The position numbers and the translations under genes were made by a program. 32,000 bases of DNA, taken from the NCBI RefSeq assembly GCF_000284115.1, contig NC_017080.1, positions 2,070,001-2,102,000 on the forward strand, in the 5' to 3' direction. Within the stretch, counting starts at the first letter, position 1; every line of letters begins with the position of its first letter. Positions 3,660 to 25,705 of this stretch are shown piece by piece. The DNA comes from Phycisphaera mikurensis NBRC 102666 (GTDB lineage Bacteria > Planctomycetota > Phycisphaerae > Phycisphaerales > Phycisphaeraceae). Under the pieces are notes generated by a model. That model was not told where the DNA came from and made no database searches. It saw nothing but the letters and a program-made list of their open reading frames with translations.

Positions 3660-3800
3660 CGAGCGCTCGATGGCCGGAGCCGGGGGCGGCGGCCACGCGT
3701 CTCCGCCGGCGGGTGCGTGCCCGGGCCGTGTTCGCCCGCGGCCCGCCGAGGAGCTACCTTCCGCCTCCTGTCAACACTCGACATCTTCCGAGGCCACCCG

Positions 3801-4721: not shown

Positions 4722-4787
4722 GCGAACCCAGACCCGGCCGGCGGAGGCCGCGGGCGCGGATCCTCGGCGGGATGCGTCCTAGCGCAC

Positions 4788-4929
4788 CGTGCGCAATTTT
4801 TCGATCGCCTCTGCGGGCGAGTCGTGCCCCTCGCTTCGGCGGCTGCATCGCCCTGCAGGGGCAGGGCTGCTTCGCCTCCTCACGAGGAACACGACGCGCG
4901 GACGCAGGCCGATCGGAAAATTGCGCACG
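4788..4929. repeat. 20-bp inverted repeat pair (1 mismatch) with AT-rich cores, in the convergent GH16/cysE intergenic region
   Basis: CGTGCGCAATTTTTCGATCG (4788-4807) versus CGATCGGAAAATTGCGCACG (4910-4929). 19 of 20 positions are complementary, with a 102-bp spacer. The left arm also forms a local GCGCAC/GTGCGC hairpin followed by AATTTTT. Confidence 0.6.
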
Positions 4930-4934
4930 ATGCT

Positions 4935-5891
<957 letters not shown>

Positions 5892-6344
5892 GGGCCGAGT
5901 ATGCGCTGGGTGGTCCGCGGGGCGGGCTCCGCCCACGCGGAGGCCGGAACCCGAGCGGAGACCGGCGCAGCAACGCACACGATCCTCAGCGCCTTCGCGC
6001 GCGCCGCCGCGCGCGGGAGGGGCCGCTAAACTCCGGCCTCAGCGGCCCCGTGCGAGGCCCGGGGCACCCATGTGCTCGAACCAAGTCGATCCTCAGGGGA
6101 GCGGAGTCGGGCACAACGGTCAAGCCGTCCACGAGCGGAAGGCCCGGGAGCCCCGGCGAAGCGCCCACCTTCAACTGAGGTTCGAGCTCATTCGCCCCCG
6201 ACCCCGCACGGGCCCGCTCGGACGCCCAAGCCGCCGCCGCGACGCGGCGCGGCGCGGTGTCGGTCGCCACCGGATTCCGCGGACCGCCGGCCCCCGCGGC
6301 GTTCGCGGCCGGCGATCCGCGGGACCCCGGCGGAGCGGGCTCGA

Positions 6345-7535
6345 TCAGAAGCCGACGATCTCGAGCCCGAGAGCCCGCTCGGCCAACCAGGCCGCGGCGA
6401 GCAGCGCGACCAGCGCCGAGCCGACCCGCAGCGCCACGACGCGGTAGAAGGCCGTCGCCCGCAGGAGCCAGGCGACCGGGAAGAAGGCGGCGACGATCGC
6501 GAGCTGGCCCAGCTCGACGCCAACGTTGAAACCCAGCAGGGCGACGCCCAGGCCGGTGCCGCCGAGGCCGAGATCGCGGAGCACGCTCGCGAAGCCGAAG
6601 CCGTGCAGCAGCCCGAACGCGAAGGCGATGCCGACGCCGGTCAGCGGCAGCCTCGGGGCCAGGTTGTGCACGGCCGACACGATGATCGAGGCGGCGATGA
6701 CCGACTCCACCAGCCGCGACGGCGGCTCGACCCAGCCGGTCGTCGCGAGCCAGAGCGTGACCGAGTGGGCGACGGTGAAGGAGGTCACCAGCGCGAGGAT
6801 GCCGCCCGCCGCGGGCGCGAAGGCCGGCGCCGGCGTCCACCGGCCTCCGCTGCGCAGGAGCACCGCGGGCAGCATCAGCGTGATCAGGAAGAGCACGTGG
6901 TCGAGCCCGATCCAGATGTGGTACACGCCCTCGCGGACGAAGCCGAGGAAGGACGCGGCGGAGCGGCCGCCGCCCGCGGCGAGGTCCAGCCGCGTCGCGT
7001 CCGCGTCCGGCCCGAGCACGGCGGGGGCGGAGGGCCCCTCCCCGGCGTCGACGAAGACGAGGCCGCGATGGGTGGGATCCGCGTCGAAGAGCAGGCGGTA
7101 GCGGACGGCGAGGGTGGCGGGTTCCGCCTCCGCGTCGGTGCCGACCGCGAGCACGGCGTACGCCCCGTCGGAGTGGTCGGTCACGAGCAGATCGTCGAGG
7201 CGGAGCGTCAACGGCACCCCGTCGGCTTCCAGGCCCAGCCGCGAGAGCGTGGCGGCGGCGATCTCGCTCCGCTTGGCCTTCAGCTCGCCCCAGGTGAGCG
7301 CGCTGTCGCCGTCGGCATCGAGGCCCACCAGGAAGTCGAGGTCCTTCAGCGAGACGTCCCACCGCAGACGCACGGGCGTGTCGGAGGGCGCGGCAACCGC
7401 GTCGCCCGCTCGCGCCGCGGGCCCGACGAGCACGCGGAGGTAGCTGTCGCTGGGCTTGTGCGCCGCGGCGGGCGTCGCCCCCAGGGCCGCCAGGAGGGCC
7501 GCGAACAGGAGCGGGAGCGGGTGGAGGCGCCTCAC
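6345..7535 (-). CDS. HupE/UreJ-family membrane protein with an N-terminal periplasmic domain (putative metal permease)
   Basis: GTG start at 7535 overlaps the stop of the upstream TPR gene (GTGA at 7532-7535). The signal peptide ends in AAAHKPSDSYL. The C-terminal half matches the HupE/UreJ-type TM core: HIWIGLDHVLFLITLMLP...FTVAHSVTL...GLLHGFGFASVL...GFNVGVELGQL. Confidence 0.85.
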   Translation of the reverse strand: MRRLHPLPLLFAALLAALGATPAAAHKPSDSYLRVLVGPAARAGDAVAAPSDTPVRLRWDVSLKDLDFLVGLDADGDSALTWGELKAKRSEIAAATLSRLGLEADGVPLTLRLDDLLVTDHSDGAYAVLAVGTDAEAEPATLAVRYRLLFDADPTHRGLVFVDAGEGPSAPAVLGPDADATRLDLAAGGGRSAASFLGFVREGVYHIWIGLDHVLFLITLMLPAVLLRSGGRWTPAPAFAPAAGGILALVTSFTVAHSVTLWLATTGWVEPPSRLVESVIAASIIVSAVHNLAPRLPLTGVGIAFAFGLLHGFGFASVLRDLGLGGTGLGVALLGFNVGVELGQLAIVAAFFPVAWLLRATAFYRVVALRVGSALVALLAAAWLAERALGLEIVGF

Positions 7536-8716
7536 GGCCGTCCTCCGGGGGCGAGCGCGTCGAGCAGCGGGGCCAGGTCCGCGTCCTCGGTCCCGGCGTC
7601 GCGGAGGAACGCGACCACCCCGCCGGCCGCGGCCGGCCGCCCCGCGGCGAGCGCGGCCTCGAGCACGTTGCGGCTGTCGCGGGGCTGCTTCTGGAGGTCC
7701 CAGTTCTGCAGCGCGACCTCCAGGGCGCGCCGCGCGTCGCCTTGCAGCTCCAGCTCGAAGCGGCTCTCGTAGCGGCCGTGCGGGTCGCTCCCGCGGAGGC
7801 GGATCTCCGCGAACCGGTCGGCGAGCCGGCGGGTGGACGCGGCGGCCGCTCCGCCCTCGCCGGCCCGCGTGGCGGCAAGAGCGTGGGCGAGCAGCAGGCC
7901 GGTGTCCGACAGGCGGGCGGCCGCGAGCGGCAGCACCGCGGCGGGCCGGCCGCGGTCGAGCAGGAAGTCGGCGTAGGCCCGGAGCAGGTACGCGTCGCCG
8001 GGGTCGCGGGCGAGTCCGGCGCGGAAGCGGGCTTCGGCCGCGTCGAAGCGGCCCAGGGCGCGGGCGGCGTCGGCGGCGACGACGTCGGCGAAGCCGCGGA
8101 GCGCCGGCGGCGTGCCGGGGTCGGCGAGAAGGGCGTCCGCGTCGGCAAGGGCCCGCTCCGCGTGACCGGTCACGACGTCCAGCGGCAGACGGGCGGCGGT
8201 CGCCGCGGCGTCCTCGCCGGCGGCCTCGAGCCGCGCGACCGCCGCCCGGGCCGCCGGGTAGTCCCCGAGCACGTAGTGCAGGTTCGCGACCTCCAGGAGA
8301 GCCTGCGGGTCGTCCGCGGCCCGGTCCAGGACGCTCCGCTGGTCCGCGAGGGCCCCGCGGTAGTCGTGGTCCCGCTCGCGGAGCTTCGCCCGCAGCCGGA
8401 GGACGGCCAGCGGCGGATCCTCCAGCCCCCACCACGGCGAGAGGGCGGCCCGGGCGTGGCCGAAGAACCGGGGATCGTCCTCGCGACGCGCGATCTCCAG
8501 GGAGTCCGCCGCGAGCCGCACCGCCGCGTCGGTGTCCCGCGGGTCCTCGGCGAGCCGGGCCCGCAGCCCGGCCAGCCGGTCGCCCGCGGCGAAGAGCACC
8601 CGCGGGATCCGCTCGAGCACCTCGTCGTCGGACGCGGGGCGGCGGGGCTCGCCCGCCCCCGCGGTGGCCGCCCCGAGCAGCGCGATCGAGGCGAGAGCGA
8701 TTCTGGAACGCGGCAT
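7532..8716 (-). CDS. secreted TPR-like repeat protein
   Basis: Trimmed to ATG 8716 (MPRSRIALASIALLGAATAGAG signal peptide). It contains Ala/Leu-rich helical repeats of TPR type (LGDYPAARAAVARLEA, LGRFDAAEARFRAGLARDPGDAY). It is translationally coupled to the HupE-like gene. Confidence 0.7.
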   Translation of the reverse strand: MPRSRIALASIALLGAATAGAGEPRRPASDDEVLERIPRVLFAAGDRLAGLRARLAEDPRDTDAAVRLAADSLEIARREDDPRFFGHARAALSPWWGLEDPPLAVLRLRAKLRERDHDYRGALADQRSVLDRAADDPQALLEVANLHYVLGDYPAARAAVARLEAAGEDAAATAARLPLDVVTGHAERALADADALLADPGTPPALRGFADVVAADAARALGRFDAAEARFRAGLARDPGDAYLLRAYADFLLDRGRPAAVLPLAAARLSDTGLLLAHALAATRAGEGGAAAASTRRLADRFAEIRLRGSDPHGRYESRFELELQGDARRALEVALQNWDLQKQPRDSRNVLEAALAAGRPAAAGGVVAFLRDAGTEDADLAPLLDALAPGGRP

Positions 8717-8883
8717 CGCGGGAAACCTACGGCCAACCCGGGGCGGCGGATGCCTCCGGTGCCGGCGGAGGCCTCCTCCGCGGCCCCGGGGCATCCAGGC
8801 GGCTGCAGACGCCGTACAACACCGGCGGGCGGAACGCCCGTCGCCGCTCGCGGCGTTCACCACCACCATCTTTCGGCTCCTCC

Positions 8884-9927
8884 ATGCAGAATCGCCCCCG
8901 ACTCCTCCTCGCCGCCGCCGTCCTCCCCGCGGGTGCCGCTCTGGCCGCCGACCACCTCGACGCCCCGAGCGTCGCCGCCAACGGCCAGGCCGACATCAAC
9001 GACCTCTACGCCTTCCAGTCGCCGACCAACGCCGACAACACGGTGCTGATCCTGACGGTCAACCCCGCCGCCGGCGTGCTCTCGCCGACGACCTTCGGCG
9101 ACGACGTGCGGTACGACATCCTCATCGACAGCGACGGCGACGCCCTCGCCGACGCCAGCTACTCCACGTCCTTCTTCACCCGGGAAGACGGCCGCCAGGA
9201 CTTCACCGTCACCCGCGGCGGCGAGGCGTACGCCTCGGGCACCACCGGTGCCCGCTCGACGAGCGTCAGCGGCGGCCAGGTGACCGCGGGCCTCTTCGAG
9301 GACCCGTTCTTCTTCGACCTCGATGGCTTCAACGACGGCTTCGCGTTCACGGGTGACGACTTCTTCGCCGGGCTCGACGTGAGCGCGATCGTGCTGGAGG
9401 TGCCCAGCGCCGAGCTCGGCGCTGTGCAGGTCGGGCTCTACGCCGAGACCCGCGTCGACGGCGAGCGCTTCGACCTGATGGGCCGCCCCGCCATCAACAC
9501 CGTGCTGCTCGAGGGCGACCGCAAGGAGCTCTTCAACGACGTCGACCCCGCGGACCAATTCTCGGTCTTCGGCGAGGAGGTGACCGCCAAGATCGCGTCG
9601 CTCTCCGACCAGGAGAACGCGGAGTCGCTCACCCCGATCCTGTTGCCCGATCTGCTGACCTACGACAGCTCCAGCGACGCCGGGTACCTCAACGGCCGCC
9701 GGCTCGACGACGACGTCATCGACGCGAGCCTGAGCCTGCTCACCGCCGGGGCCCTGGTCTCCGACGGCGTCGACGGCAACGACAGAGCGTTTCTGAACGC
9801 CTTCCCCTTCCTCGCCGCCGCCAACGGGGACGGCCCGGTCCCGATCCCGACGCCCTCGGCCGCCGCCGCCGGCCTCGCCCTGCTGGGCGTGGGCGTGGCC
9901 CGCCGCCGCCGCCGCGTCGAGGCCTGA
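8884..9927 (+). CDS. DUF4331-family secreted protein with a PEP-CTERM-like C-terminal anchor
   Basis: ATG 8884 inside track ORF 7456..9927; the upstream 476 codons are an RPG-rich shadow. Signal peptide is followed by ADHLDAP....ADINDLYAF, and later FEDPFFFDLDGF. Both are landmarks I associate with DUF4331. The C-terminus is VPIPTPSAAAAGLALLGVGVARRRRR. Confidence 0.7.
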   Translation: MQNRPRLLLAAAVLPAGAALAADHLDAPSVAANGQADINDLYAFQSPTNADNTVLILTVNPAAGVLSPTTFGDDVRYDILIDSDGDALADASYSTSFFTREDGRQDFTVTRGGEAYASGTTGARSTSVSGGQVTAGLFEDPFFFDLDGFNDGFAFTGDDFFAGLDVSAIVLEVPSAELGAVQVGLYAETRVDGERFDLMGRPAINTVLLEGDRKELFNDVDPADQFSVFGEEVTAKIASLSDQENAESLTPILLPDLLTYDSSSDAGYLNGRRLDDDVIDASLSLLTAGALVSDGVDGNDRAFLNAFPFLAAANGDGPVPIPTPSAAAAGLALLGVGVARRRRRVEA

Positions 9928-9980: not shown

Positions 9981-10089
9981 CGGTGCGCCGTCCGCGGCTC
10001 CCGGCCCCGCCTCCTCTGCGAACCGACCCGCGTCCTGCGCAGGAGACCGTCCCGATCCGCTCTGCGGGGCGTCGGAAGGGTCTTCTGCG

Positions 10090-10163
10090 TGGGCCATACT
10101 GGACTCGAACCAGTGACCTTCTCGATGTCAACGAGACGCGCTAGCCAGCTGCGCCAATGGCCC
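10090..10163 (-). tRNA. tRNA-Val(GAC): tRNA-Val (anticodon GAC)
   Basis: Reverse complement: GGGCCATTGGCGCAGCTGGCTAGCGCGTCTCGTTGACATCGAGAAGGTCACTGGTTCGAGTCCAGTATGGCCCA. It has a 7-bp acceptor stem GGGCCAT/ATGGCCC, D arm GCGC...GCGC, anticodon stem TCTCG/CGAGA with loop TTGACAT, and T arm ACTGG-TTCGAGT-CCAGT. CCA is not encoded. Confidence 0.9.
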
Positions 10164-10229: not shown

Positions 10230-11732
10230 TCACGCGGCGATGCGCGGGCGGGGCGCCGCGGCGGGCTCGGGCTCGGCGGACCAGGTGGAGGGCTCGAAGC
10301 CGTGGCGGTCGAGGTGGCCACGGAGCCCCTCGACGGCGCCGCCGCAGACGGCGGTGCGTGCCTCGGCTTCGAGGATGGACAGCACCTTCTCCCGGGGCAT
10401 CGTGGCGCGGTAGGGCCGCTCCGCGGTCATGGCCTCGTACATGTCGGCGACGGCGAGGATGCGGCTGTGCGGGTGGATGGCGTCGCCGACGAGGCCGCGG
10501 TGGTAGCCGGTGCCGTCGAGTTTCTCGTGGTGGCCGGCGGCGACCTCGCTCAGATCGCCGAGCCCCCGGACCCGCCCGAGGATCTGGTGGGTGAAGGCCG
10601 CGTGCTGGCGCATCTCGCGGAACTCGGCGTCGTCGAGCTTGCCGGGCTTGTCGAGGATCGTGTTGGAGACGCCGAGCTTGCCGACGTCGTGCAGCAGCGC
10701 GGCCCGGCGGACCTGCCGCACCTCCGCGGCCGGAAGCCCCTGGTGGCGGGCGATGCCGACCGCGAGCTCCTCCACGCCCTCGCTGTGGCGGCGGGTCCAG
10801 GGGCTCTTGGCGTCGACGACCTGGGCGAAGCCGATCGCGATGTCGTCGATGCGGGCGTCGTCGGCGAGCAGCCGCTTCTCGGGCGGCTCGAGGTCGACCA
10901 ACGCGGCGAACGGATCGGCGGTGTAGACGCCCGACCAGAAGTTGGTCTGGTTCTCCAGCCGAAGCGCCACGTCGGCGATCGTGGGGTCGAACCAGTGGCC
11001 GCGTCGCCGGCGGAGCATGTCCATGCCGGCGCCCACGCCGTGCGCGGCGACGAAGACCTCCAGCGTCTGGGCGAGCCCGAGCACGCGGGCGAGCAGCGGG
11101 ATCGCCTCCCGGCGGGTGCCGTGGGGGTGGCCGCGTCCGTCCCAGTGCTCGTCGAGCGCGTAGATCGCTTCGGAGGTGGCCTCGGGGACGCCGAAGAGCC
11201 GGGAGATGGCGGCGCCACGCTCGCACCGGATCGAGATCATCTCCCGCCCGGCCGCGGGCCCGGCGGCGCCGATGCGGGCGGCCCGGCCGATCTTCTCGAT
11301 CATGGTGCCGCTGCCGAAGGCGTGCCGCGTCGTGTACTTGATCGATTCGCCGAGGCGGGCCCAGTCGACGGTCTTGAAGTCGCGTTTGATGCCCCGATCG
11401 TCGCCGCCGAAGAGGTTGGCGATGCGTGCGGCGTTGCTCGAGCAGCCCAGGTCCTTGAGCTGGCTGGCGTAGAAAAGAGCGGAGTGCTCCTCGACGCTGA
11501 GATGCAGCTCCGACGCGATCTGCATCGCGATCAGGCAGGTCCGGGCGGAGTGGCCCTGCGGCTGTCCCTCGGTCACGTCCAGCGCGGCGGAGAGGGCGGA
11601 GACGAGGTCGGCGAGGCGGATCGTCGGGGCGGGTGCGGACGCGGCATCGGGGGCCCCGGCCCCGCCCGGCGGCGTGGGGCCGGCTTGCAGGGGGCGGTCG
11701 TTCGTCGTCGAGGCGGGCGTGGGGTGATCCAT
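10230..11732 (-). CDS. tandem HD-GYP domain protein (putative cyclic-di-GMP phosphodiesterase/sensor)
   Basis: 500 aa. The C-terminal domain carries HDVGKLGV and HHEKLDGTGYH (HD-GYP signature with P replaced by H). The N-terminal half is a degenerate copy (LKDLGCSS, DEHWDGRGHPHG). Confidence 0.85.
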   Translation of the reverse strand: MDHPTPASTTNDRPLQAGPTPPGGAGAPDAASAPAPTIRLADLVSALSAALDVTEGQPQGHSARTCLIAMQIASELHLSVEEHSALFYASQLKDLGCSSNAARIANLFGGDDRGIKRDFKTVDWARLGESIKYTTRHAFGSGTMIEKIGRAARIGAAGPAAGREMISIRCERGAAISRLFGVPEATSEAIYALDEHWDGRGHPHGTRREAIPLLARVLGLAQTLEVFVAAHGVGAGMDMLRRRRGHWFDPTIADVALRLENQTNFWSGVYTADPFAALVDLEPPEKRLLADDARIDDIAIGFAQVVDAKSPWTRRHSEGVEELAVGIARHQGLPAAEVRQVRRAALLHDVGKLGVSNTILDKPGKLDDAEFREMRQHAAFTHQILGRVRGLGDLSEVAAGHHEKLDGTGYHRGLVGDAIHPHSRILAVADMYEAMTAERPYRATMPREKVLSILEAEARTAVCGGAVEGLRGHLDRHGFEPSTWSAEPEPAAAPRPRIAA

Positions 11733-11938: not shown

Positions 11939-12011
11939 GCCCCCTTCGTCTAGTGGCCTAGGACATCGCCTTCTCATGGCGAGAACAGGGGTTCGACTCC
12001 CCTAGGGGGTA
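11939..12011 (+). tRNA. tRNA-Glu(CUC): tRNA-Glu (anticodon CTC); its 3' 21 nt lie inside attL
   Basis: GCCCCCTTCGTCTAGTGGCCTAGGACATCGCCTTCTCATGGCGAGAACAGGGGTTCGACTCCCCTAGGGGGTA is colinear with E. coli tRNA-Glu. Anticodon stem is TCGCC/GGCGA with loop TTCTCAT. T arm is AGGGG-TTCGACT-CCCCT. Acceptor stem is GCCCCCT/AGGGGGT, with a G1-U72 wobble. Confidence 0.9.
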
Positions 12012-13317
12012 AGGGTCCCGTGCGGACCGCACCACGATGCCCCCCAGTGCCTCGCACGGGGGGTTTTTCGTTGCCGGTGCCCCCCCTTGCCCGCGGAGCG
12101 CGCACCACAGGGCGCACCACTCCCGCCTCGGCTCCGGCCGCGCCGCCCACGTCCGCCCCGGGCTCCGCCACCGCCCGCGCCCAGTGATCCGCCGTGATCC
12201 GGTTGTAGTGCGCGTCCGCCACCTTCTCGGAGTTCCCGAGCCACGCCGCCACCACGTGCCCGGCGTAGCGGTCGTTCAGGTCGGTCTGCCGGCTCGCCCG
12301 CAGGGCATGGAACAGCCGGGGCCACGGCTTCAGGCCCGCCCGGTCGATCGCCGCCAGCACCGGCTTGCGGAACGCCTGCCCGGTCCGCGTCGCCGCGTAG
12401 GGCACCACGTGCACCGCGCCCGCGGGCGCGGCCTCGAAGGTTTCCCGCAGGGCCTCCAGCAGCTCGGGGAACAGCGGCACCTCCCGGGTTTCGTGCCCCG
12501 CGTGCCCGGCGGTCTTCGGGCTCCGCACCAGCAGGCGGCCGGCGGCCCAATCCACGTCCGCCCACAGCATCCCCTCCACCTCGGACGGGATCCGCACGCC
12601 GCCCCAGCGGGCCAGGATGAACAGCGTCCGAAGCTCCCCGGTGGACAGTGCCCCGCGGCCTTGCAGCTCCGCCAGCACCGCCAGGGCGTCCGCCTCGGGC
12701 ACGTACGCGGCCCGCTCGGGGTTCGGCATCGACGTGATCGGCAGGTGCCCGAAGGGGTCCACCGCCTCGCCCACCAGCTTCTTCCGCCGGCCGTAGCGGA
12801 ACAGGTCCCGCAGGTCGCCGGTCGTCTTCCGCGTCGTCGCCTCCGCCAGCCCCTTCCGGCCGGGGCCGGTGCCCCGCATCCACGCCCGCCAATCGTCGGC
12901 GTCGCCGGCGGTCACGGTGTCCGGGTTGCGGTCCGCCCCGAAGTGCTCCAGCAGGTACCGCCGCGACTGCCCAAGCCGCCGCACGGTGTTCGGCTTCTTC
13001 GTCGCGGCCTTCGTCTTCAGCCACGCCTCGGACAGCTCCCCGAGCGTTGCGGTTGCGGCGGCCTCCAGGGGCTCCGCCAGCCCGCAGGCCACCAGCCGCT
13101 CCCGCAGCGTCCCCTCCACCCGCGACAGCCACGCCCGCGTCGGCGGCGTCGGCTCCAGGCCCGCCGCCCCCGCGGCCTCCAGCTCGCCCACGTGCGCGGC
13201 CACTTGCTCCGCCCGCCGCTTCGCCATCTTCCCGAGCCACACCGCCCGCCGTCGGCCGTCTCGGAGTCTCACGTACACCCGCACGTTTCCGCGGGGATCG
13301 GTCGTCATGCTCGCCAT
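11974..13317 (-). CDS. int: tyrosine recombinase / phage-type integrase
   Basis: Trimmed to ATG 13317, preceded by AGGAAC. Catalytic signature present: ARWGGVRIPSE (Arg), HALRASRQT (H-x-x-R), AHYNRI (Tyr). The ORF has no stop until 11974, so its low-complexity tail crosses attL and overlaps the tRNA 3' end on the opposite strand. Confidence 0.9.
   Translation of the reverse strand: MASMTTDPRGNVRVYVRLRDGRRRAVWLGKMAKRRAEQVAAHVGELEAAGAAGLEPTPPTRAWLSRVEGTLRERLVACGLAEPLEAAATATLGELSEAWLKTKAATKKPNTVRRLGQSRRYLLEHFGADRNPDTVTAGDADDWRAWMRGTGPGRKGLAEATTRKTTGDLRDLFRYGRRKKLVGEAVDPFGHLPITSMPNPERAAYVPEADALAVLAELQGRGALSTGELRTLFILARWGGVRIPSEVEGMLWADVDWAAGRLLVRSPKTAGHAGHETREVPLFPELLEALRETFEAAPAGAVHVVPYAATRTGQAFRKPVLAAIDRAGLKPWPRLFHALRASRQTDLNDRYAGHVVAAWLGNSEKVADAHYNRITADHWARAVAEPGADVGGAAGAEAGVVRPVVRAPRARGGTGNEKPPVRGTGGHRGAVRTGPLPPRGVEPLFSP
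11991..12016. repeat. attL: 26-bp direct repeat GTTCGACTCCCCTAGGGGGTAAGGGT
   Basis: Identical to 19833-19858. It covers the tRNA-Glu T-loop through 5 nt past the discriminator base. Confidence 0.9.
12040..12068 (+). terminator. intrinsic terminator downstream of tRNA-Glu, supplied by the integrated element
   Basis: CCCCCC-A-GTGC [CTC] GCAC-GGGGGG followed by TTTTT (12064-12068). It starts 29 nt after the tRNA 3' end and lies antisense within the low-complexity tail of the integrase ORF. Confidence 0.65.
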
Positions 13318-13434
13318 GTTGTTCCTGCCTTGCCTTCTTGCGGGGCCCCAGCCCCTCGGGTGATCCACCGCGACCGTAGAGAGCCGCGGGCCGGCGCGCC
13401 AGCGGGTGCCGGCTTCCACGCCTCTTCCTGCCCG

Positions 13435-13971
13435 TCAGAACCCCGGCAGCGCCGCCGCCTCGGGCCTCGGGGTGTTCGCCGCCTCCAGGGCCTCGGCACC
13501 CGGGGGCGTCCAGCGCTGCGCCTTCAGGTCGGCCCGCGTCACGTCCAGCGCGTCGCCAAACAGCCGCCGGAACCCGGGGGCGTCGCCGGCCTCCGCGACC
13601 CGAGCCGCCCACCGGGCCGCCAGCGGCCGCACCACCTCCGGGGGCCACGCTGCCCGAAGGGCCACCAGCAGCCGCTCCGCTGCGCCGTCCGCGGGGGCGT
13701 CTCCGTTCCACAGCCGCACGCCCATCGCATCGGCCACCGCCCACAGCGGGGGAAGGCTGCCCGAAGGGAAGGGCGGCGGCGGGCCGCACGCCTCCCCGAG
13801 CACCAGCAGCCGCAGCAGGGACAGACGGGCGGCGGCGGCCTCCGCCACCAGCGCCGGCGGCAGGGCCTCACCCGCGGCCGGGTCCAGCCGCAGCTTCACC
13901 CGAGCCGCAACGCCCGCGGTCTCCAGCCGCTCCAGCAGGTCCGCCGCGGCGGGGGGGTTGCTGCCGCTCAC
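13435..13971 (-). CDS. hypothetical protein (element-encoded)
   Basis: GTG at 13971 overlaps the stop of the replication gene (GTGA at 13968-13971). Third-position GC bias looks coding. The N-terminal DLLERLETAGVAARVKLRLDP..GEALPPALVAEAAAARLSLLRLLV weakly resembles short docking-helix motifs (TubC-N-like pattern). This is a weak resemblance only. Confidence 0.55.
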   Translation of the reverse strand: MSGSNPPAAADLLERLETAGVAARVKLRLDPAAGEALPPALVAEAAAARLSLLRLLVLGEACGPPPPFPSGSLPPLWAVADAMGVRLWNGDAPADGAAERLLVALRAAWPPEVVRPLAARWAARVAEAGDAPGFRRLFGDALDVTRADLKAQRWTPPGAEALEAANTPRPEAAALPGF

Positions 13972-16514
13972 AGCTCCACTCCCTCCCCGATGCCCGGGGT
14001 CGGCGGCTCGGGCGTCGCTCCGCCGCCACCCGTGCGGGATCCACTCACAGAACCCACAGAACCCCGGGCCGCCGGGGGTTGTGTGAGTTTCGTGCGCGGC
14101 TTTTCCTCCGGCAGGGGCCGCGGGCGGCGCCACGCGTAGCTCACGCTCGGGGCTCCGCCCTTGGCGGTCGTCGGCACCTCTTGCTCCAGCAGGTGCCCGT
14201 GATCCCGCAGCAGCTCAAGCGCCCGCGTCACCGGCTCCGCCTTCCGGCCGATCCCGCTCCAGCCCTTCGCGTACACGTCCCGGCCGCTGAAGCGCTCCGG
14301 CAGGTCGCCCGCCTCCAGCCGCTCCAGGATCCGCCCGGCCCGCTCCACAGCCTCCCGCGTCTCGGACAGCAGCACCCGGCGGGCGTGCGCCTCGAAGTAC
14401 GCCGCCAGCTCCAGGGCCCGCCGCAGGGCGTCGTCGGTTACCCGGTGCGGGTCCGCCACTGCCGCCGGCTCGGTCGCGTCGGCCACGTGCAGCAGAAGCG
14501 CGAGGCTCGGCACCAGCTTCCGCAGCTTGGACAGCCACCCGGACATCATCGGGGATCGCTCCCGCGGCAGCCGGGCCTCCAGCACGTGCCGCCACGCCCG
14601 GAACCGCTCCAGCGCATCGCCGCAGAATCGCAGGTGCGGGATCGCGTCCGCGGGAGCGTTTTCATCCACCCGCCCCCCGAGCCTTGCGGGGTCGGTTGTC
14701 GCGGCCCGCTCGTACGCAGCCTCGGCTCGGGCGAAAGCCACGCGGTCCGGCTTCCGGTCTACGTCCCGCCACTCCGCGGGATGGTCGGGCCAGGTCATCG
14801 CTTGCAGCCTGTCCAGGAACCCGTCGGCTCGGGTGCCACCCGCAGCGACCGCGGCCACCAGCGCGGCCATCGGCTCGGGTTGAATCGCGCCGCACACAGA
14901 CAGGCACATCCGATCCACGTAGACCTCGCCCCGCCTGATCCGGTCCAGCGATAGGCACCCGTCGCCGTTCCAAGCCTCCAGGCACAGCGCCCGCTCTTGC
15001 TCCCGCCCCTTCTTCTCCAGCCCCGCCAGCCACCCGGGCAGCTCATCGCGCAGCAGGGTCACGCCCGCAGGGTTGTGCTCCATGATCGCGTGCAGCTTCT
15101 CGGGCGTCGCATCGTTCACCACGTACCGCCGCGGGGTCGGCGCCGCCGGCGGCTCCACCTCGCCCAGCAGCCGCTCCGCTTCGGCCATCGCCTCCGCGTC
15201 GTCACCCGCCGCCGCCTTCTTCAGCACCGCCTCCGCCGCGGCTCGCTTAGCCTTGAAGGTCGTCACCTTCAGCTCATACGCCGCCTCGGCTTCGGCGTTG
15301 CTCTTCCTCGCCCGCTTCTCCAGCCGCTCCAGCATCCGCTTCGGCTCCTTCATCGCCGGCGTCTTCATCGTGCCCGGTGAACCCACCACGCCGCCCCACA
15401 GGTTCGGAATCTCTTCCCATGTTGTGTCGTCTCCCTTCGGGCGGATGCACAGCCGCGCACCCACGGCTCCGCTGAAGGTCACCAGCGCCGCCACCGCCAC
15501 GTAATCCAAGGGGCATTGCATCCGGTCGGCCACGTCCAGGCACCACAGGCGGAACGCCTCGGGCAGCCACGCGGGATCGAAAGGCGGCACCGCCAGCAGC
15601 GGCGGGGGCAGCGGCCGCGGCTCGGGAGTGCCTGCCGGCTCCGCCTCCGCCGCCAGCGCCTCCACCGCAGCCCGCACCGCCCCGGGGTCCGCCTCCCGCT
15701 CCAGCGCGTCCACCAGGTCACCCCGGGGGGGCAGGTCCGCCCAGCGGTCCACCAGGTGCACCACCCGCACGTCGGCGGCCACGTCGCCCAGGTGATCCGC
15801 GACCCGAGCCGCCCACTTCCTGCCGGGGTCGTCATGGTCCGCCAGCACCCGCACGCAACGGCCTCGAAGCGCTTTCCAGTCGGTTGCATCGACGGGGGCA
15901 CCGCTGCCGCCCGCAGCGGTCACCGTCACCAGACCGGCCTCGGCTCCGGCGTCGGCGGCCTTCTCCCCCTCCAGCACGTCCACCGGCAGGGAAGGGTTGG
16001 CCGCCAGTAGCTCGGGGAGCCGGTACAGCGGGCGCGGCTTCGGCATCGCCTCCGCACGCCACAGCCCATCGACGGGGCAGCGGCTCGCCTGCCGGTAGGT
16101 CTTCCGGCCGCCGGCTTCCTCGAAGCGCAGCACCACGCCCACCGGCTTCTCCGCAGCGTCCCGGTATGTCCACCGCCCGGCCGCGGGGCCACGCTGCCCA
16201 TACGCGGCCTTCACCAGCTCCGCGGCGGTCCCGTAGCCTCCCGGCCTGTTCTCTCCCGCGTCGCCCGTCTCCAGCGGGGCCGCGGCTTGCGGGCGCTTCG
16301 CCGGCATCCACGTCCCGGTCGTCGCCTCGGGCGGGGCGTCGTCGGCCGCGAATACTCCACCGCCATCCTTCGCCGCCAGCAGCTTCCAGCCGGGCGGGGG
16401 GGCCGCCAGCCGCTCACACTTCACGCGGGAACCGTTGCCCATCCGGGCGCACCAGTCCGGCTTGCCGCACACAGGGCAGGGCTCCGCTTTCGTCACGGTG
16501 TTGAAGTCGCTCAA
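13968..16514 (-). CDS. replication protein: N-terminal Zn-finger + TOPRIM-like primase module + DUF3987 (YfjI-like) helicase-loader-like domain
   Basis: Proposed TTG start at 16514 overlaps the upstream stop (TTGA). Zn motif: CPVCGKPDWC...KCER. TOPRIM acidic motifs: LEGEKAADAG and RVLADHDDPG. DUF3987-like block: PLDYVAVAALVTFSGAVG...GSPGTMKTPAM...NDATPEKLHAIMEHNPAGVTLLRDELPGWL. The start codon is uncertain. Confidence 0.8.
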   Translation of the reverse strand: MSDFNTVTKAEPCPVCGKPDWCARMGNGSRVKCERLAAPPPGWKLLAAKDGGGVFAADDAPPEATTGTWMPAKRPQAAAPLETGDAGENRPGGYGTAAELVKAAYGQRGPAAGRWTYRDAAEKPVGVVLRFEEAGGRKTYRQASRCPVDGLWRAEAMPKPRPLYRLPELLAANPSLPVDVLEGEKAADAGAEAGLVTVTAAGGSGAPVDATDWKALRGRCVRVLADHDDPGRKWAARVADHLGDVAADVRVVHLVDRWADLPPRGDLVDALEREADPGAVRAAVEALAAEAEPAGTPEPRPLPPPLLAVPPFDPAWLPEAFRLWCLDVADRMQCPLDYVAVAALVTFSGAVGARLCIRPKGDDTTWEEIPNLWGGVVGSPGTMKTPAMKEPKRMLERLEKRARKSNAEAEAAYELKVTTFKAKRAAAEAVLKKAAAGDDAEAMAEAERLLGEVEPPAAPTPRRYVVNDATPEKLHAIMEHNPAGVTLLRDELPGWLAGLEKKGREQERALCLEAWNGDGCLSLDRIRRGEVYVDRMCLSVCGAIQPEPMAALVAAVAAGGTRADGFLDRLQAMTWPDHPAEWRDVDRKPDRVAFARAEAAYERAATTDPARLGGRVDENAPADAIPHLRFCGDALERFRAWRHVLEARLPRERSPMMSGWLSKLRKLVPSLALLLHVADATEPAAVADPHRVTDDALRRALELAAYFEAHARRVLLSETREAVERAGRILERLEAGDLPERFSGRDVYAKGWSGIGRKAEPVTRALELLRDHGHLLEQEVPTTAKGGAPSVSYAWRRPRPLPEEKPRTKLTQPPAARGSVGSVSGSRTGGGGATPEPPTPGIGEGVEL

Positions 16515-16765
16515 TGGGCACCGCCTTCCGCGAGGGGGGCGGCGGCTTCGGCCTGCCGGGCGTCGGCCCAGCGTTGAAGCTCCGCACGGTTGAACAGGCG
16601 GCAGGTGCCCAGCTTGAAGCTCGGGAGCGTGCCGGCCGCCGCCAGCTCCTTCACCGTCCGCTCGGACAGGCACAGCACCGCGGCGGCTTGCTTCGCCCGC
16701 AGGGTGATCGGCACCAGCACCGCCTCGGGCGGCGCGGCCTTCGGGTCGTCGGGGGTCGCCAGCAT
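16511..16765 (-). CDS. excisionase-family helix-turn-helix DNA-binding protein (Xis/AlpA-like)
   Basis: ATG 16765, 84 aa. ITLRAKQAAAVLCLSERTVKELAAAGTLPSFKLGTCRLFNRAELQRW fits the excisionase-type HTH pattern (L..S..T......G.LP..K.G....F....L..W). Confidence 0.7.
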   Translation of the reverse strand: MLATPDDPKAAPPEAVLVPITLRAKQAAAVLCLSERTVKELAAAGTLPSFKLGTCRLFNRAELQRWADARQAEAAAPLAEGGAH

Positions 16766-16767
16766 GT

Positions 16768-17010
16768 TCACGCGGCACCGCCTTCCGCGTCGCCGGCGGC
16801 GCGGGCCAGCAGGCACCGCTTCACGGCTTCCACGTTGAACAGCAGGCGGCGGCCGGCTCGAAGGTGCGGGATCCGGCCGGCGGCCGTTTCTTCCTTCAGC
16901 CACGCCGCGGGGATCTTCAGGCGCCGGGCGAGGGCCGGCAGCGCCACCAGGTCGGTAGGTGTTTCATTCATGCCCGCCACGTTGCTCGGCAGCGGGCGGC
17001 TCCCGGTCAC
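16768..17010 (-). CDS. second excisionase-family HTH protein
   Basis: LPALARRLKIPAAWLKEETAAGRIPHLRAGRRLLFNVEAVKRCL matches the same HTH pattern. The track start is GTG 17010. ATG 16971 (MNETPTD...) is an equally plausible start. Confidence 0.65.
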   Translation of the reverse strand: MTGSRPLPSNVAGMNETPTDLVALPALARRLKIPAAWLKEETAAGRIPHLRAGRRLLFNVEAVKRCLLARAAGDAEGGAA

Positions 17011-17037
17011 CTCCCGGGCGTTTTTCGGGCGGTTTTC

Positions 17038-17568
17038 CTACAACTTCGGCGTTTCAGGCGGTTGCAGCGTGTAGCGGCCTTGCGTCGGCGTCACCACCAG
17101 CGTTCTCCAGGCATCATGGTTGCGGAACCAGTCCGACGGCTTCGCGCTCTCGCGTGCCCCCACGCGGTCCCGCAGGGTCTCCACAGACAGCGGCCGCCGC
17201 CCATCCTCGTACGCCTCCCAAAGCGCCCGGATGCACCGGCGTTGCATCGGCCGCGGGAAGTCGAAGGTCTTCGCGCCCCACCGGAACGTCTCGAAGTCGG
17301 GGCCGGGCGCCATGCCCGGGCCGGCAGCCGCCTCACGCTCCGCTGCCGTCGCCGGCAGCCCCGGACCGCTTCCCGCCACCTTCAGCCGACCCACCGCCCG
17401 CCGGCACACGTCGGCCACCTCCTCCACCCGGGCCGGGTCCGTCTCCAGGTCCTTCACGGTCCACCCGAAGGGCTCCGGGTCCAGCCTTTGCTCCCGCACC
17501 ACCTCCAGCACCATCGGGAGCGCCAGCTCGTACGCAGCATCCGTGATCGCCAGCGCCTCCCGGCGCAT
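17038..17568 (-). CDS. hypothetical protein; the C-terminal third is weakly winged-helix-like
   Basis: 176-aa ORF with coding-like third-position bias. The C-terminus (PMQRRCIRALWEAYEDGRRPLSVETLRDRVG...WRTLVVTPTQGRYTL) resembles OmpR-type wHTH spacing. This rests on pattern resemblance only. Confidence 0.6.
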   Translation of the reverse strand: MRREALAITDAAYELALPMVLEVVREQRLDPEPFGWTVKDLETDPARVEEVADVCRRAVGRLKVAGSGPGLPATAAEREAAAGPGMAPGPDFETFRWGAKTFDFPRPMQRRCIRALWEAYEDGRRPLSVETLRDRVGARESAKPSDWFRNHDAWRTLVVTPTQGRYTLQPPETPKL

Positions 17569-17601
17569 CTTCAGCTCCGCGCGTGCCTCTCTTGCGCCCG
17601 C

Positions 17602-18204
17602 CTACGCGTCCGGCAGGTCGCCGCCCAAGTCCGGGTCACGCTTCGCCCGCCTCACGCGGTCGTTGCTCCAACCCAGCGTCTCCGCTGCCACCCGCTCCGC
17701 CTCCCGCGCCTCCAGCAGCCCCTTCAGTGTGCCCGGGAAGCCTTGCACCGCCAGCCGCGGGCACCATGGCCGTTGCACCTCCACCGCCGCGGCCCGCCGA
17801 ACCCGCCGCACGTCGGCGTACCACGCCTCCCGCCGGGGGTCCGCCACCCGCAGGCAGTCCAGGCTCGTACCCAGCGTCTCCGCCTCGATGCCCCACCGGG
17901 CCGCCGCGTCCTCCACCGGGGCAAGGTTCGCCGCGAACGTCCGCGACAGCCGCGACGGCACGTCCGCCAGCTTCCCCAGCCGCTCCCGTGCCCGGGCCGC
18001 CGTCGCGTCCGCCTCCGCTCGGGCGGGGCTCCCCTCGGGCAGCGCGGCCGCCGTCGCTCGGGCTCCGCGGTCGGTCGCGTCCGCGTCAGCGCATTGCTCC
18101 AGGGCCTCTACATACTCCGCCGGCAGCTCCAGCAGCCGGGCAGCCGCCGCGTCCACCGCCTGCGCTTCAGCCGCCCGGCGTTGCCCCTCCAGTGTGTCTC
18201 GCAT
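17602..18204 (-). CDS. hypothetical protein (element-encoded)
   Basis: 200-aa ORF starting at an ATG preceded by GAAGGCAGGA. Coding-like bias. No motif recognised. Confidence 0.6.
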   Translation of the reverse strand: MRDTLEGQRRAAEAQAVDAAAARLLELPAEYVEALEQCADADATDRGARATAAALPEGSPARAEADATAARARERLGKLADVPSRLSRTFAANLAPVEDAAARWGIEAETLGTSLDCLRVADPRREAWYADVRRVRRAAAVEVQRPWCPRLAVQGFPGTLKGLLEAREAERVAAETLGWSNDRVRRAKRDPDLGGDLPDA

Positions 18205-18567
18205 GGTCCTGCCTTCGGTGGAAACGGCCGGGCCCCGCGTCTCACCCAGGCAGGGAGGGAACGCAGGGCCCGTACGGCGCGGATCAGGCGCCTACCGGTC
18301 GGGATCGTAGCGGCGGGCGGCTCGGCTCCACCCCGGCGGCCAAAGAAAGAAACAGAATCCACATCCTCGACTGTTCCCCACGGTCTCAGCGGGCGAATCG
18401 TTCGCCAGGAAGGACCCAAACGCCCCCCCTAGGGCCGCCTCCTGCCCGTCGTCAGTTCCGGGGGCCACCAGGGCCGGAACGGTCCGCCAGGCTCTCACGG
18501 TGCCGCGTCGCCGCTGCCCGGGCATCCTCCTGAGCCGCCGCGGGCAGCTTCCGCCACGCCGCCGGGT

Positions 18568-19089
18568 TCATCGCCGCCGGATCCGCCCACAGCCCCGACC
18601 CGCTGCCCGGGCCTCCGCCGCCAGTGTCTCCAGGTCCGGCCGGTCCGCGTGTTGCCACCGCCAGGCGTGCCCCGCCTCCACCAGCCCGGCGCCCAAGTCG
18701 CGCCCGCCATCGTGCCGCACCTCCGCCAGCCGCCGGCCCCAGCGGTCCCGATCGTCGCCCACCAGCTCCACCGCCTCGCCTTCCTCCAGCGCCGCCCAGG
18801 CCCACGCCGTCGCCGCGTCACCTCCAGGCTGCGCTCGCTCGGGGGCGTCGATGCCCAGCACCCGCACCCGCACCACCTCGCCCGCGGGGTCCACCACGTC
18901 CACCGTGTCGCCGTCCACCACCCGGGCCACCCGGAACGGGGGCAGCTCTTCCGGCGTCACCGCCAGCGGGGCCTCGGGCACCGCCTCGGCAGGGGGGCGG
19001 CTCGGCACCGCCGGCGGCCGCATCGTCCACACCACCAGCAGCAGGCCCACCAGCAGCACCAGGCATAGAAGGGTCCGGGGGCTCACCAC
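18568..19089 (-). CDS. membrane-anchored staphylococcal-nuclease-like (SNase/thermonuclease) protein, truncated by a frameshift relative to the family
   Basis: N-terminal TM segment LLCLVLLVGLLLVVW. SNase core: RVVDGDTVDV, RVRVLGIDAPE, DRWGRRLAEV. The family's C-terminal GLWADP....WRK motif is encoded in the -1 frame (track ORF 18452..18805), downstream of a C4 run at 18593-18596. The intact gene would span 18452-19089. Confidence 0.7.
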   Translation of the reverse strand: MVSPRTLLCLVLLVGLLLVVWTMRPPAVPSRPPAEAVPEAPLAVTPEELPPFRVARVVDGDTVDVVDPAGEVVRVRVLGIDAPERAQPGGDAATAWAWAALEEGEAVELVGDDRDRWGRRLAEVRHDGGRDLGAGLVEAGHAWRWQHADRPDLETLAAEARAAGRGCGRIRRR

Positions 19090-19312
19090 CCGACGCTACC
19101 GCCGCTCGGGTCCGCCGCGACACTCCGCCGCACCCGGACCGCGGGAATGCCCGTGAAGGGCCCGCGGCCGGCCGCTGCGCTTTCTCCCTTACTTGCCCGT
19201 CGGCTTCGCTCGGGCGCGGGTCATGGGCTCCCGCGTCCGCACCGCAGCGGGGGCACCCCTCGGGAGGGACCCCTGCCGGTGCATCCGCCACCCGGCAGGC
19301 ACGCCCGGCTTC

Positions 19313-19627
19313 TCACGCGGCCGGCTCCGGGGGCGGCTCGGGCTCTTCCTCGCCCACCAGCCGCAGCACCGGCTCCCCCGCGGGGCCGCTTGCCCCCGAG
19401 CCGCCGCCACGCTCCAGGGAGGCCACCGCCGCCTCCAGCTCCGCGAGGTCGGCCCGCGCCGCCAGCGTCCCCACCCGGCGCCGGAGGTCCGCCCGCCGCT
19501 TCTCTTGTGCCGGCAGTTCCTCCATCGCCCGCACCACCCCCCGCAGTTGCGGCATCGTCAGGCGGGCCAGCGCCTCGCCTCCCCGCTCCAGCAGCTCCGC
19601 GCGGGTCATCCGGTCGTAGTCGCTCAC
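19313..19627 (-). CDS. hypothetical protein (element-encoded)
   Basis: 104 aa. GTG 19627 overlaps a TGA at 19624-19626 (GTGA), implying an upstream coupled reading frame. Coding-like bias. No motif recognised. Confidence 0.6.
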   Translation of the reverse strand: MSDYDRMTRAELLERGGEALARLTMPQLRGVVRAMEELPAQEKRRADLRRRVGTLAARADLAELEAAVASLERGGGSGASGPAGEPVLRLVGEEEPEPPPEPAA

Positions 19628-19832
19628 GCCTCACCCCCTGCCCGAGCCGCCGCCGCCTCCACCCGGGCCTGAAGCTCCGCCACCACGCGGGGCAGCTCAC
19701 CGGCAGGCAGCAGGCCCACCAGCTCCCGAGCCTCCGCCCGCAGGGCCTCACGGCCACCCGCTGCGCCACGCGCACCACCCGGCGCACCACTGCCCCCCGG
19801 TTTTCCCGCCTCACGGGGCTCCAGGGCCGATT

Positions 19833-19858
19833 GTTCGACTCCCCTAGGGGGTAAGGGT
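19833..19858. repeat. attR: second copy of the 26-bp repeat
   Basis: GTTCGACTCCCCTAGGGGGTAAGGGT, identical to 11991-12016. Flanking bases differ on both sides. Confidence 0.9.
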
Positions 19859-19881
19859 GCCGGTTGGCACAGGCTCGAGTG

Positions 19882-19906
19882 CCCCGGCGCGACGCGCCGG
19901 GGCTTT
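19882..19906 (+). terminator. hairpin + CTTT; probable native tRNA-Glu terminator displaced by the insertion
   Basis: CCCCGGCGC (19882-19890) pairs with GCGCCGGGG (19894-19902) around loop GAC, followed by CTTTGG. It begins 24 nt after attR, where a terminator would sit if the tRNA were uninterrupted. Confidence 0.45.
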
Positions 19907-25580: not shown

Positions 25581-25705
25581 CTAAGCAGCGGGTGCCCGGG
25601 GGGCGGGCGGCTCGGTGCGGAGCGGCGTGGGTGTCGGGAGGAGGCGGGCGGCCTTCCGCGGGCGCCGATCGCCCCGCCGCCGCCCGCCAAAGGTCGTGGC
25701 GTCGA

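Follow-up and report, generated by a model that had tools for sequence, protein, structure and literature searches.

What is the approximately 7.8-kb segment that lies downstream of a tRNA-Glu gene in Phycisphaera mikurensis, and does it belong to a mobile lineage? To address this question, we analyzed a 32-kb stretch of DNA (the window) from P. mikurensis NBRC 102666, a marine planctomycete and cultured type strain. A sequence-only reading of the window had proposed a satellite-like integrative element in tRNA-Glu(CUC), similar in architecture to P4-like or phage-inducible chromosomal island (PICI)-like satellites, in a planctomycete-like host. The host was recognized correctly, and no paper in the literature collection searched links Planctomycetes with phage satellites. 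To our knowledge, almost no mobile elements or phages have been described for Planctomycetes. We conclude that the segment is very probably an intact site-specific integrative element, probably self-replicating, and that it belongs to a small family so far found only in Phycisphaera-like high-G+C bacteria.

The boundaries of the element are set by the 26-mer GTTCGACTCCCCTAGGGGGTAAGGGT, an exact direct repeat with two copies in the window, at 11991–12016 and 19833–19858. The chance expectation is 0 copies, and no additional copy is present with three or fewer mismatches. The left copy (the attL core) spans the last T-stem base, T-loop, 3′ T-stem, 3′ acceptor strand, and discriminator base of the intact target gene, tRNA-Glu(CUC) (11939–12011, plus strand; detected by ARAGORN and by Rfam at 56.2 bits), plus 5 nt. 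The right copy (the attR core) is the displaced tRNA 3′ end: it lies in no tRNA gene by ARAGORN or Rfam, and nothing tRNA-like precedes it. The perfect repeat was therefore as first described, and the possibility that the 26-mer is simply shared by several tRNA-Glu genes, which had been raised as a ground for rejecting the element, is removed by the second copy falling in no tRNA. Outside the 26-mer, the two copies cease to be identical immediately on either side. Independent support for the boundary comes from a related locus, L001, whose homology with the window begins within the att core (GTCGAAC) and extends inward, with the host side dissimilar. The segment thus has a repeat of the 3′ part of the tRNA at both ends, an intact tRNA gene, and an integrase gene abutting attL, as is general for site-specific elements integrated in tRNA genes. 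From these boundaries, we predict an attB junction in which GGGGTTCGACTCCCCTAGGGGGTAAGGGT is followed directly by GCCGGTTGGCACAGGCTCGAG, and an attP junction that reads CCAGGGCCGATT, GTTCGACTCCCCTAGGGGGTAAGGGT, and CCCGTGCGGACCGCACC in succession.

We identified nine genes between the repeats, all intact and all on the minus strand. From the attR side to the tRNA gene, they are o9, SNase, o7, o6, HTH2, HTH1, replicase, orf2, and int. Genes were called from codon-position G+C (GC3 frame analysis) and start-codon context, high-G+C DNA being rich in spurious frames, and independent gene calls in two further assemblies of the strain (L090 and L091) gave the same set. Both the GC3 analysis and these assemblies agree with the earlier placement of every gene on one strand. 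The earlier count of ten genes, five of them unknowns, has to be revised to nine, of which four encode proteins without a library match (orf2, o6, o7, and o9), and o6 among these has a confident winged-helix domain. Profile searches with the element proteins, suggested at the outset as a check, matched integrase, helix-turn-helix (HTH), replicase, and staphylococcal nuclease (SNase) families, and a scan of ten flanking genes gave no virion genes. Scans with Pfam, PHROGs, NCBIfam, and PADLOC found no family of capsid, terminase, tail, lysis, or conjugation functions among the nine proteins, in agreement with the first impression, and no element protein matched relaxase, coupling protein, type IV secretion, or FtsK-like translocase families. 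This last result bears on whether the segment could be an integrative mobilizable element or integrated plasmid that is moved by a conjugative system encoded elsewhere. DUF3987/YfjI-type proteins, the type to which the element replicase belongs, are found on plasmids at about 30% identity, and many of these plasmids are predicted to be mobilizable; however, with none of the transfer families matched and no plasmid match for the element DNA, we regard this explanation as very unlikely.

Seven related loci were found in metagenome assemblies, among them L001, L003, and L008 in one European Nucleotide Archive (ENA) sample, L007 and L009 in another ENA sample, and L006 in a Logan assembly. Some of their contigs cover only part of the common gene order. 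The common order is att, o9, a variable slot, conserved non-coding blocks, one or more variable regulator genes, HTH2, HTH1, replicase, orf2, int, and the tRNA gene. The L008 integrase frame ends in tRNA-Lys(CTT), with fatty-acid synthesis genes beyond, and L006 ends in the same tRNA-Lys sequence. In L003, an element of about 6 kb (3670–9911) has a full tRNA-Arg(TCT) on one side and, on the other, a 49-nt repeat of the 3′ part of this tRNA; the integrase of the element, which the gene caller missed, matches Pfam at 1.4e-11. A further locus, L005 (327–834), comes from a different sample than L003 and carries a single tRNA-Arg that joins the two outer junctions of L003, which is the empty-site configuration. 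Thus, this sister element has both an occupied and an empty site. An empty tRNA-Glu site, the form in which such evidence had been anticipated, was found in no relative. Instead, in the closest relatives (L003–L005; L004 1–137), the ortholog of the right-flank gene PSMK_17780 (61% protein identity) is preceded by tRNA-Arg(TCT) and not by tRNA-Glu, and this tRNA-Arg occupies the position held in P. mikurensis by the attR of the tRNA-Glu element. Elements of this kind evidently use the locus upstream of PSMK_17780 as a landing zone.

The modules of the family differ in their relatedness. Identity between the window and L001 is 98.5% for HTH2, 93% for o9, 83% for HTH1, 71% for orf2, and 62% for the replicase. 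The replicases of the relatives (L003 5683–8136, L006 1452–3593, L007 3618–6196, and L008 1991–4510) have in common a Zn-finger/primase N-terminus with 61–74% identity, while the helicase part is DUF3987, AAA_25, or, in L003, unclassified. The range of module identities from 62% to 98.5% and the swapped helicase parts indicate recombination among active elements. At the DNA level, element modules are 79–90% identical, compared to 74.9% for syntenic host genes (L003–L005). Together, the different tRNA targets, the occupied and empty sites of the sister element, and the module mosaicism argue that the family is real, mobile, and recombining.

The integrase gene (int, 11974–13317, minus strand) encodes a probable tyrosine integrase of 447 aa in the integrated state, which was called independently in L091. 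It abuts attL, as the sequence-only reading had stated, and matches phrog_1 at 4.5e-32. The protein is 75–87% identical to the integrases of L006, L007, L008, and L009. By inspection, candidate catalytic residues are R241, K268, H337-x-x-R340, W359, and Y371; a sequence search of the PDB gave no match. The int frame crosses attL without a stop and ends inside the tRNA gene: read on the minus strand, the core specifies PLPPRGVE, and the stop follows five codons on. At the other end of the element, an open frame (19624–19832, minus strand; computed) would be continuous with int across the att core, such that in the circular form the Int frame would have 511 aa, as opposed to 447 aa when integrated, and its stop would overlap the o9 start (GTGA). 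Both the longer frame and the GTGA overlap are retained in L001, with one 3-nt indel. The L008 integrase frame likewise stops inside the tRNA, and the frames of L006 and L003 continue past the att core. Substitutions in the extension between the window and L001 number 5/15/19 by codon position, which is not clearly coding-like, and at 74% G+C the chance that 68 codons stay open is about 40%. For lack of third-position bias and with an open frame this probable by chance, we did not adopt the long Int tail as a real coding extension.

Both ends of the element carry further features on the plus strand. The motif GCGCACCAC has four copies in the window (1.07 expected), all on the same strand and all adjoining att sites: one pair at 12100–12120, 84 bp inside attL, and a second pair at 19770–19790, 43 bp inside attR, with the members of each pair 12 bp apart. 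Pairs of the core GGTGCGC, with equal spacing and in equivalent places, occur in L001 (7395 and 7407), L006, L008, and L009, and L003, whose integrase is of another kind, carries a repeated motif of its own on each arm. The motif search thus yields the GCGCACCAC pairs on both attP arms as candidate arm-type binding sites of the integrase. Directly after the regenerated tRNA, and within the 3′ tail of the int frame, lies an element-supplied, terminator-like hairpin (12040–12068, plus strand; CCCCCC...GGGGGG followed by TTTTT), noted by reading and matched by a terminator scan at 12049–12064; a similar sequence is found at the same place in L006 and L008. Just outside attR, and upstream of PSMK_17780 as called in L090, a G+C-rich hairpin is followed by TTT (19881–19906, plus strand; noted by reading). 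The scan requires at least five T residues and did not flag it. This second hairpin is probably the original terminator of tRNA-Glu.

The replicase (PSMK_17710; 848 aa, 13968–16514, minus strand) begins at a TTG start that overlaps the HTH1 stop, and its own stop overlaps the orf2 start (GTGA), so that stop/start overlaps couple HTH1, replicase, and orf2. It is laid out as an N-terminal Zn-finger (CxxC...C), a primase region, and a helicase-like domain of the DUF3987 (YfjI) type (8e-93), with matches to PHROG primase and helicase families. The PHROG primase matches fall in the N-terminal third, NCBIfam PRK07078 covers residues 103–290, and matches in plasmid records name the DUF3987 domain “YfjI family”; a PDB sequence search found nothing. 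Of the Zn-finger/TOPRIM/DUF3987 layout given initially, the first and last parts are borne out, and Pfam did not detect TOPRIM in the protein itself; a TOPRIM fold may be present, judging from the PHROG primase families and from Toprim Pfam domains in homologues. The L007 replicase has its Zn-finger part split off as a gene of 94 aa. Upstream of the replicase lie two excisionase-type HTH genes, as originally recognized. HTH1 (84 aa, 16511–16765, minus strand) is of the excisionase/AlpA type, with matches to HTH_17 (3.4e-10), TIGR01764 (9.7e-10), phrog_66, and phrog_1840. HTH2 (67 aa, 16768–16971, minus strand) is weaker: HTH_17 (1.3e-3) and TIGR01764 (1.5e-3) are both below cut-off, and phrog_1840 is matched at 2.5e-5. 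It is 98.5% identical to its counterpart in L001 and 97% to that in L008. The gene between replicase and int, orf2 (178 aa, 13435–13971, minus strand), is specific to the family: among 5.8 billion proteins it has six clusters, every one in this element family, with 70–87% identity. Its AlphaFold model has low confidence (predicted local distance difference test [pLDDT] 58) and was too poor for a structure search. We rejected a TubC_N-like N-terminus for orf2, as profile comparison gave this a probability of 1.4%.

The remaining genes include those that vary between relatives. The o6 protein (176 aa, 17038–17568, minus strand) has a variable N-terminus and, in the AlphaFold model, a C-terminal winged helix, with pLDDT >92 over residues of about 90–170. 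Among PDB folds, the DNA-binding domains of OmpR/PhoB/AfsR match best, though the E-values are weak (0.09–0.3; probabilities 0.75–0.93). Based on the model, we consider the C-terminal domain (residues about 85–175) a putative DNA-binding winged helix of the OmpR/PhoB-like type. The domain occurs in 693 representative homologues and is C-terminal in 150/150 of the matches listed, with varied N-termini. No Pfam family was matched in o6 or in ten homologues scanned, and the domain looks like an undescribed DNA-binding domain family. The neighboring o7 (200 aa, 17602–18204, minus strand), called independently in L090 and L091, is the first gene after the leader described below; it has no match in any library scanned and is not common to the relatives. 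The SNase-like nuclease named at the outset was recovered by Pfam (SNase, 2.2e-9): it is a NucI-like, secreted-type protein of 173 aa (18568–19089, minus strand) that also matches phrog_452, and its N-terminus is hydrophobic by reading. A weak match to a candidate defense family (8e-9) was its sole PADLOC match, and we did not adopt the nuclease as a defense system. L001 and L007 encode a 94-aa protein (L001 7994–8278; L007 625–909) with an N-terminal GNPGGPGNP and a weak DUF5681 match (E 0.009, below cut-off); the window lacks this protein, and its variable region holds the SNase. DUF5681-type proteins are frequent in phages. Last, o9 (104 aa, 19313–19627, minus strand) is a conserved helical protein, 93% identical to b104 of L001, and its substitutions relative to L001 fall mostly in third codon positions (10/4/3). 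Neither o9 nor orf2 has a match in Pfam, PHROGs, NCBIfam, or PADLOC.

Directly upstream of o7 lies a conserved leader of about 94 nt (18205–18298, minus strand). It consists of a 5-bp hairpin (P1), a long hairpin of 14 + 3 bp (P2), the sequence GGCCGUUUC, the ribosome-site motif AAGGCAGGA, and the o7 start codon. The leader is 84–90% conserved in six elements, each with a different downstream gene, the other copies being L001 8609–8700, L003 9362–9456, L006 1–90, L007 1633–1729, and L008 537–628. Across 22 pairs (132 pair-cells), 99.2% are paired, three pairs are changed on both sides, and 0/500 shuffles reach the observed pairing values. The single-sided changes in the long stem of P2 (pairs 39–43) are all C to U, which keeps G-U pairing on the minus strand alone. 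A covariance model of the leader found one copy in each element whose contig covers the region and none elsewhere. It corresponds to no Rfam 15 family; with E up to 1, only the tRNA family was matched in the window. We take the six related sequences as suggestive of a conserved RNA structure with covariation. Only about 15–25 nt lie between P2 and the start codon that follows, so that a promoter would have little space, and on this basis we read the leader as a likely read-through gate on the operon of regulatory, replication, and int genes.

The motif AAGGCAGGA is an unusual ribosome site. It has two copies in the window (0.09 expected; 13323–13331 and 18207–18215, minus strand), which are the ribosome sites of int and o7 only, as is also the case in the relatives, and it is complementary to the invariant P2 loop CCUGCCU. 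One could build on this a more specific scheme, in which these elements are Phycisphaerae-specific minimalist satellites silenced by RNA, with the leader blocking both the operon and int via AAGGCAGGA, similar to the P4 CI RNA, and with integration switching between long and short Int; we think it quite unlikely that all of this holds. A second conserved non-coding block (19163–19278, minus strand), aligned with L001, L007, and L008, contains the hairpin CTCGGG-TCCCT-CCCGAG and is possibly a promoter or operator region. L001 has no SNase, and there the two conserved non-coding blocks are 160 bp apart. The SNase gene separates two blocks that adjoin in L001, indicating that the nuclease is inserted variable cargo. 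No tandem-repeat array of the iteron type that would mark an origin was found, and a scan for sigma-70 promoters gave no sites, a promoter type possibly not applicable to planctomycetes.

From these features, we propose the following mechanism. Int would recombine the 26-bp core of attP with the T-loop/acceptor end of tRNA-Glu(CUC) (attB), assisted by the paired arm-type sites, and integration would regenerate the tRNA and provide it with a new terminator. The winged-helix regulator, the two HTH proteins, the primase-helicase, orf2, and int would form a single long transcription unit on the minus strand. The structured leader with its terminator-like hairpin would gate this unit, and read-through would turn on excision and replication of the circle. 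As the element has no particle or conjugation genes, it must exit the cell in something that others make. Helper-phage capsids would be the most likely route, as for a “minimalist” satellite such as the PICMIs (minimalist chromosomal islands that phages can induce), and membrane vesicles, as proposed for tycheposons, would be the alternative.

The capsid route, in its strict form, makes the element a helper-phage satellite: a phage infecting Phycisphaera would derepress it, excision, replication, and packaging would follow (the latter, as in PICMI, probably of concatemers into capsids of full size), and the variable regulators (o7/o6 and their counterparts) would sense different helpers. In its favor are the mandatory PICMI genes (int, AlpA-type, and DUF3987), the small size together with the absence of particle genes, DUF3987 primase relatives in IMG/VR viral contigs (up to 36% identity), the weak DUF5681 match in L001 and L007, below cut-off as it is, and a post-leader slot whose non-homologous genes, several with DNA-binding C-termini, recall the variable repressors of satellites. 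However, no helper is known, neither terS nor capsid-remodeling or interference genes were found in the element, IMG/VR contains no member of the family, the regulators run in the direction of the operon and not divergently as in PICIs, and the trio alone is called ambiguous by the authors of SatelliteFinder (PMC10085698). We therefore hold a strict satellite to be possible, at somewhat less than an even chance. Unlikely, in our estimate, is a phage-independent shuttle similar to a cargo tycheposon, which would excise and replicate under stress, spread by vesicles or as free DNA, and carry the SNase as cargo. The marine host, a tRNA target combined, as in tycheposons, with a tyrosine recombinase, an excisionase, and a primase/helicase but neither terS nor a major capsid protein, and a variable slot with the SNase here and other genes in relatives all fit such a shuttle; its cargo, though, is minimal, amounting to one nuclease.

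Several results weigh against an active, self-replicating integrative element. Neither an excised form nor an empty tRNA-Glu site was seen, and all three strain assemblies have the element integrated. The G+C content of the element (0.749) equals that of its flanks (74% in the window), which fits a long stay in the lineage equally with mobility inside it. The integrase matches Pfam Phage_integrase at only 5e-5 and 23.6 bits, below the cut-off of 27.1. Scans of IMG/VR with the leader, integrase, orf2, and o9 and a whole-element megablast against phage and plasmid records returned no family member, and Pfam and PHROGs revealed neither a helper phage or packaging signal nor terS or a gene for hijacking. 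The evidence for the leader, drawn from six related sequences, is suggestive, and the leader could be a mere terminator of the upstream gene. Finally, the pairing of the P2 loop with AAGGCAGGA lacks statistical support (one compensatory change, one break; 84/500 shuffles). The first two of these points, along with the absence of junction contigs, the identity of the integrated element in the three assemblies, and the weak PADLOC match of the SNase (8e-9), favor a cryptic resident that has ceased to move in this strain and is kept by chance or for a host benefit such as the nuclease or defense. We judge this rather unlikely, as the perfect repeat, the intact coupled genes, and the conserved arm sites and leader speak against decay, and the sister element has occupied and empty sites.

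Further searches and the host surroundings complete the description. Scans of Joint Genome Institute (JGI) metagenomes with a leader 23-mer and an integrase alignment yielded nothing, and a scan of a genome-contig collection with the replicase alone found no relatives. A leader 27-mer had no match in that collection, the source genome included; the region is presumably masked there. One Phycisphaerae metagenome-assembled genome contains a locus (L002, 10001–14645) whose DUF3987 replicase is 37% identical; genes for a small TubC_N-like protein and an HTH protein come after it. The locus is near tRNA-Ser(TGA), beside a restriction/SNF2 cluster, with no integrase called, and may be a decayed or different element. 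Around the element in the window, ten flanking genes were scanned with Pfam, leaving out the open reading frames at 25592–28129 and 28965–31697. They belong to housekeeping-type families (MotA/B, GH16, HD-GYP, ABC ATPase, ferritin, and GlnA), except PSMK_17780, for which the Pfam scan gave no match. Directly to the left of tRNA-Glu is the HD-GYP-type protein (10230–11732, minus strand), and farther left is tRNA-Val(GAC) (10089–10163, minus strand), at which we saw no second element.

The element is a fairly ordinary hitchhiking genomic island with unusual regulatory features in a little-studied phylum. Because it resides in a cultured type strain, it offers a workable entry point to planctomycete mobile elements. 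It brings the int/AlpA/primase solution of P4, PICMI, and tycheposons to a phylum not previously described for it, and this recurrence supports the module as a general, repeatedly assembled hitchhiker design. Concrete regulatory hypotheses that can be tested come from the leader, from the ribosome-site motif common to o7 and int, from the paired arm sites, and from the position of the att core in int, and the integrase/att pairs (tRNA-Glu, tRNA-Lys, and tRNA-Arg) could become integration tools for a genetically difficult group.

How does the element compare with known systems? The absence of relaxase, coupling, type IV secretion, and FtsK-like matches sets it apart from integrative and conjugative elements (ICEs), integrative mobilizable elements (IMEs), and actinomycete ICEs (AICEs). 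Regarding the P4-like or PICI-like assignment of the sequence-only reading, the int, xis/alpA, and primase core is present, whereas membership in either class is unsupported, the hijacking and packaging markers not having been found. P4-like satellites have seven core components in SatelliteFinder, and psu, delta, sid, and eps were not found among the nine proteins by PHROG or Pfam. The element resembles them in combining int, an AlpA-type HTH, and a large primase/helicase with a tRNA-gene target, but its replicase is of the DUF3987/YfjI type and apparently not of the P4 alpha type. In P4, control of the replication operon is exerted by the RNA of the operon's leader (CI RNA); the leader here is placed in a way that resembles that arrangement. 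A further parallel is CP4-57, a cryptic prophage of Escherichia coli with the order intA-alpA-yfjI and a tRNA or tmRNA target. For the att core within int, the precedent is the intP/intX system of the Myxococcus phage Mx8, in which attP lies inside the integrase gene. The likeness extends to an att core in the int 3′ end, a C-terminus altered by integration, a tRNA target, and a high-G+C host. Mx8 differs in being a complete temperate phage, which the element is not, and the alternative Int tail here is a predicted frame without evident selection. PICIs have five core components, and int, AlpA, and primase alone are classed as an ambiguous “Type C” that is possibly another mobile element (PMC10085698). 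It is this type that the element would match, with three core genes; the packaging/capsid-morphogenesis module of PICIs (terS and similar) was not found, and the regulators, divergent in PICIs, are co-directional with the operon.

Further likenesses are to elements that lack capsid genes. Marine virions and vesicles commonly contain such integrative elements (PMC9618062; tycheposon preprint), and in Prochlorococcus the type with a tRNA target, tyrosine recombinase, excisionase, and primase/helicase but no terS or major capsid protein is the one found in vesicles and not in virions (tycheposon preprint). Like tycheposons and VEIMEs (integrative mobile elements that virions encapsidate), the element has a marine host, a tRNA 3′-end target with related integrases assigned to different tRNAs, and a tyrosine recombinase, excisionase, and primase/helicase without capsid genes, and its integration and replication modules are swapped between relatives. 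It belongs to another phylum and is smaller than most tycheposons (10–20 kb). PICMIs of Vibrionaceae are recognized by three genes lying together, namely int, AlpA (either PF05930 or PF12728), and prim (either DUF3987 or DUF5906), lack capsid genes, measure near 6–7 kb, and need this trio for excision and replication; integration next to fis is their authors’ hallmark, and complete PICMIs were not found outside Vibrio (PMC10803314). Our element differs in its tRNA-Glu target, with fis not among the ten flanking genes scanned, and in its two HTH genes plus winged-helix regulator, its genes on one strand, and its structured leader. By shared Pfam families, it has the mandatory PICMI trio (int, PF12728 as “AlpA,” and DUF3987 as “primase”), and it also has a size of about 6–8 kb, a small unknown gene beside int, short terminal direct repeats, no capsid-remodeling or packaging genes, and a variable accessory slot.

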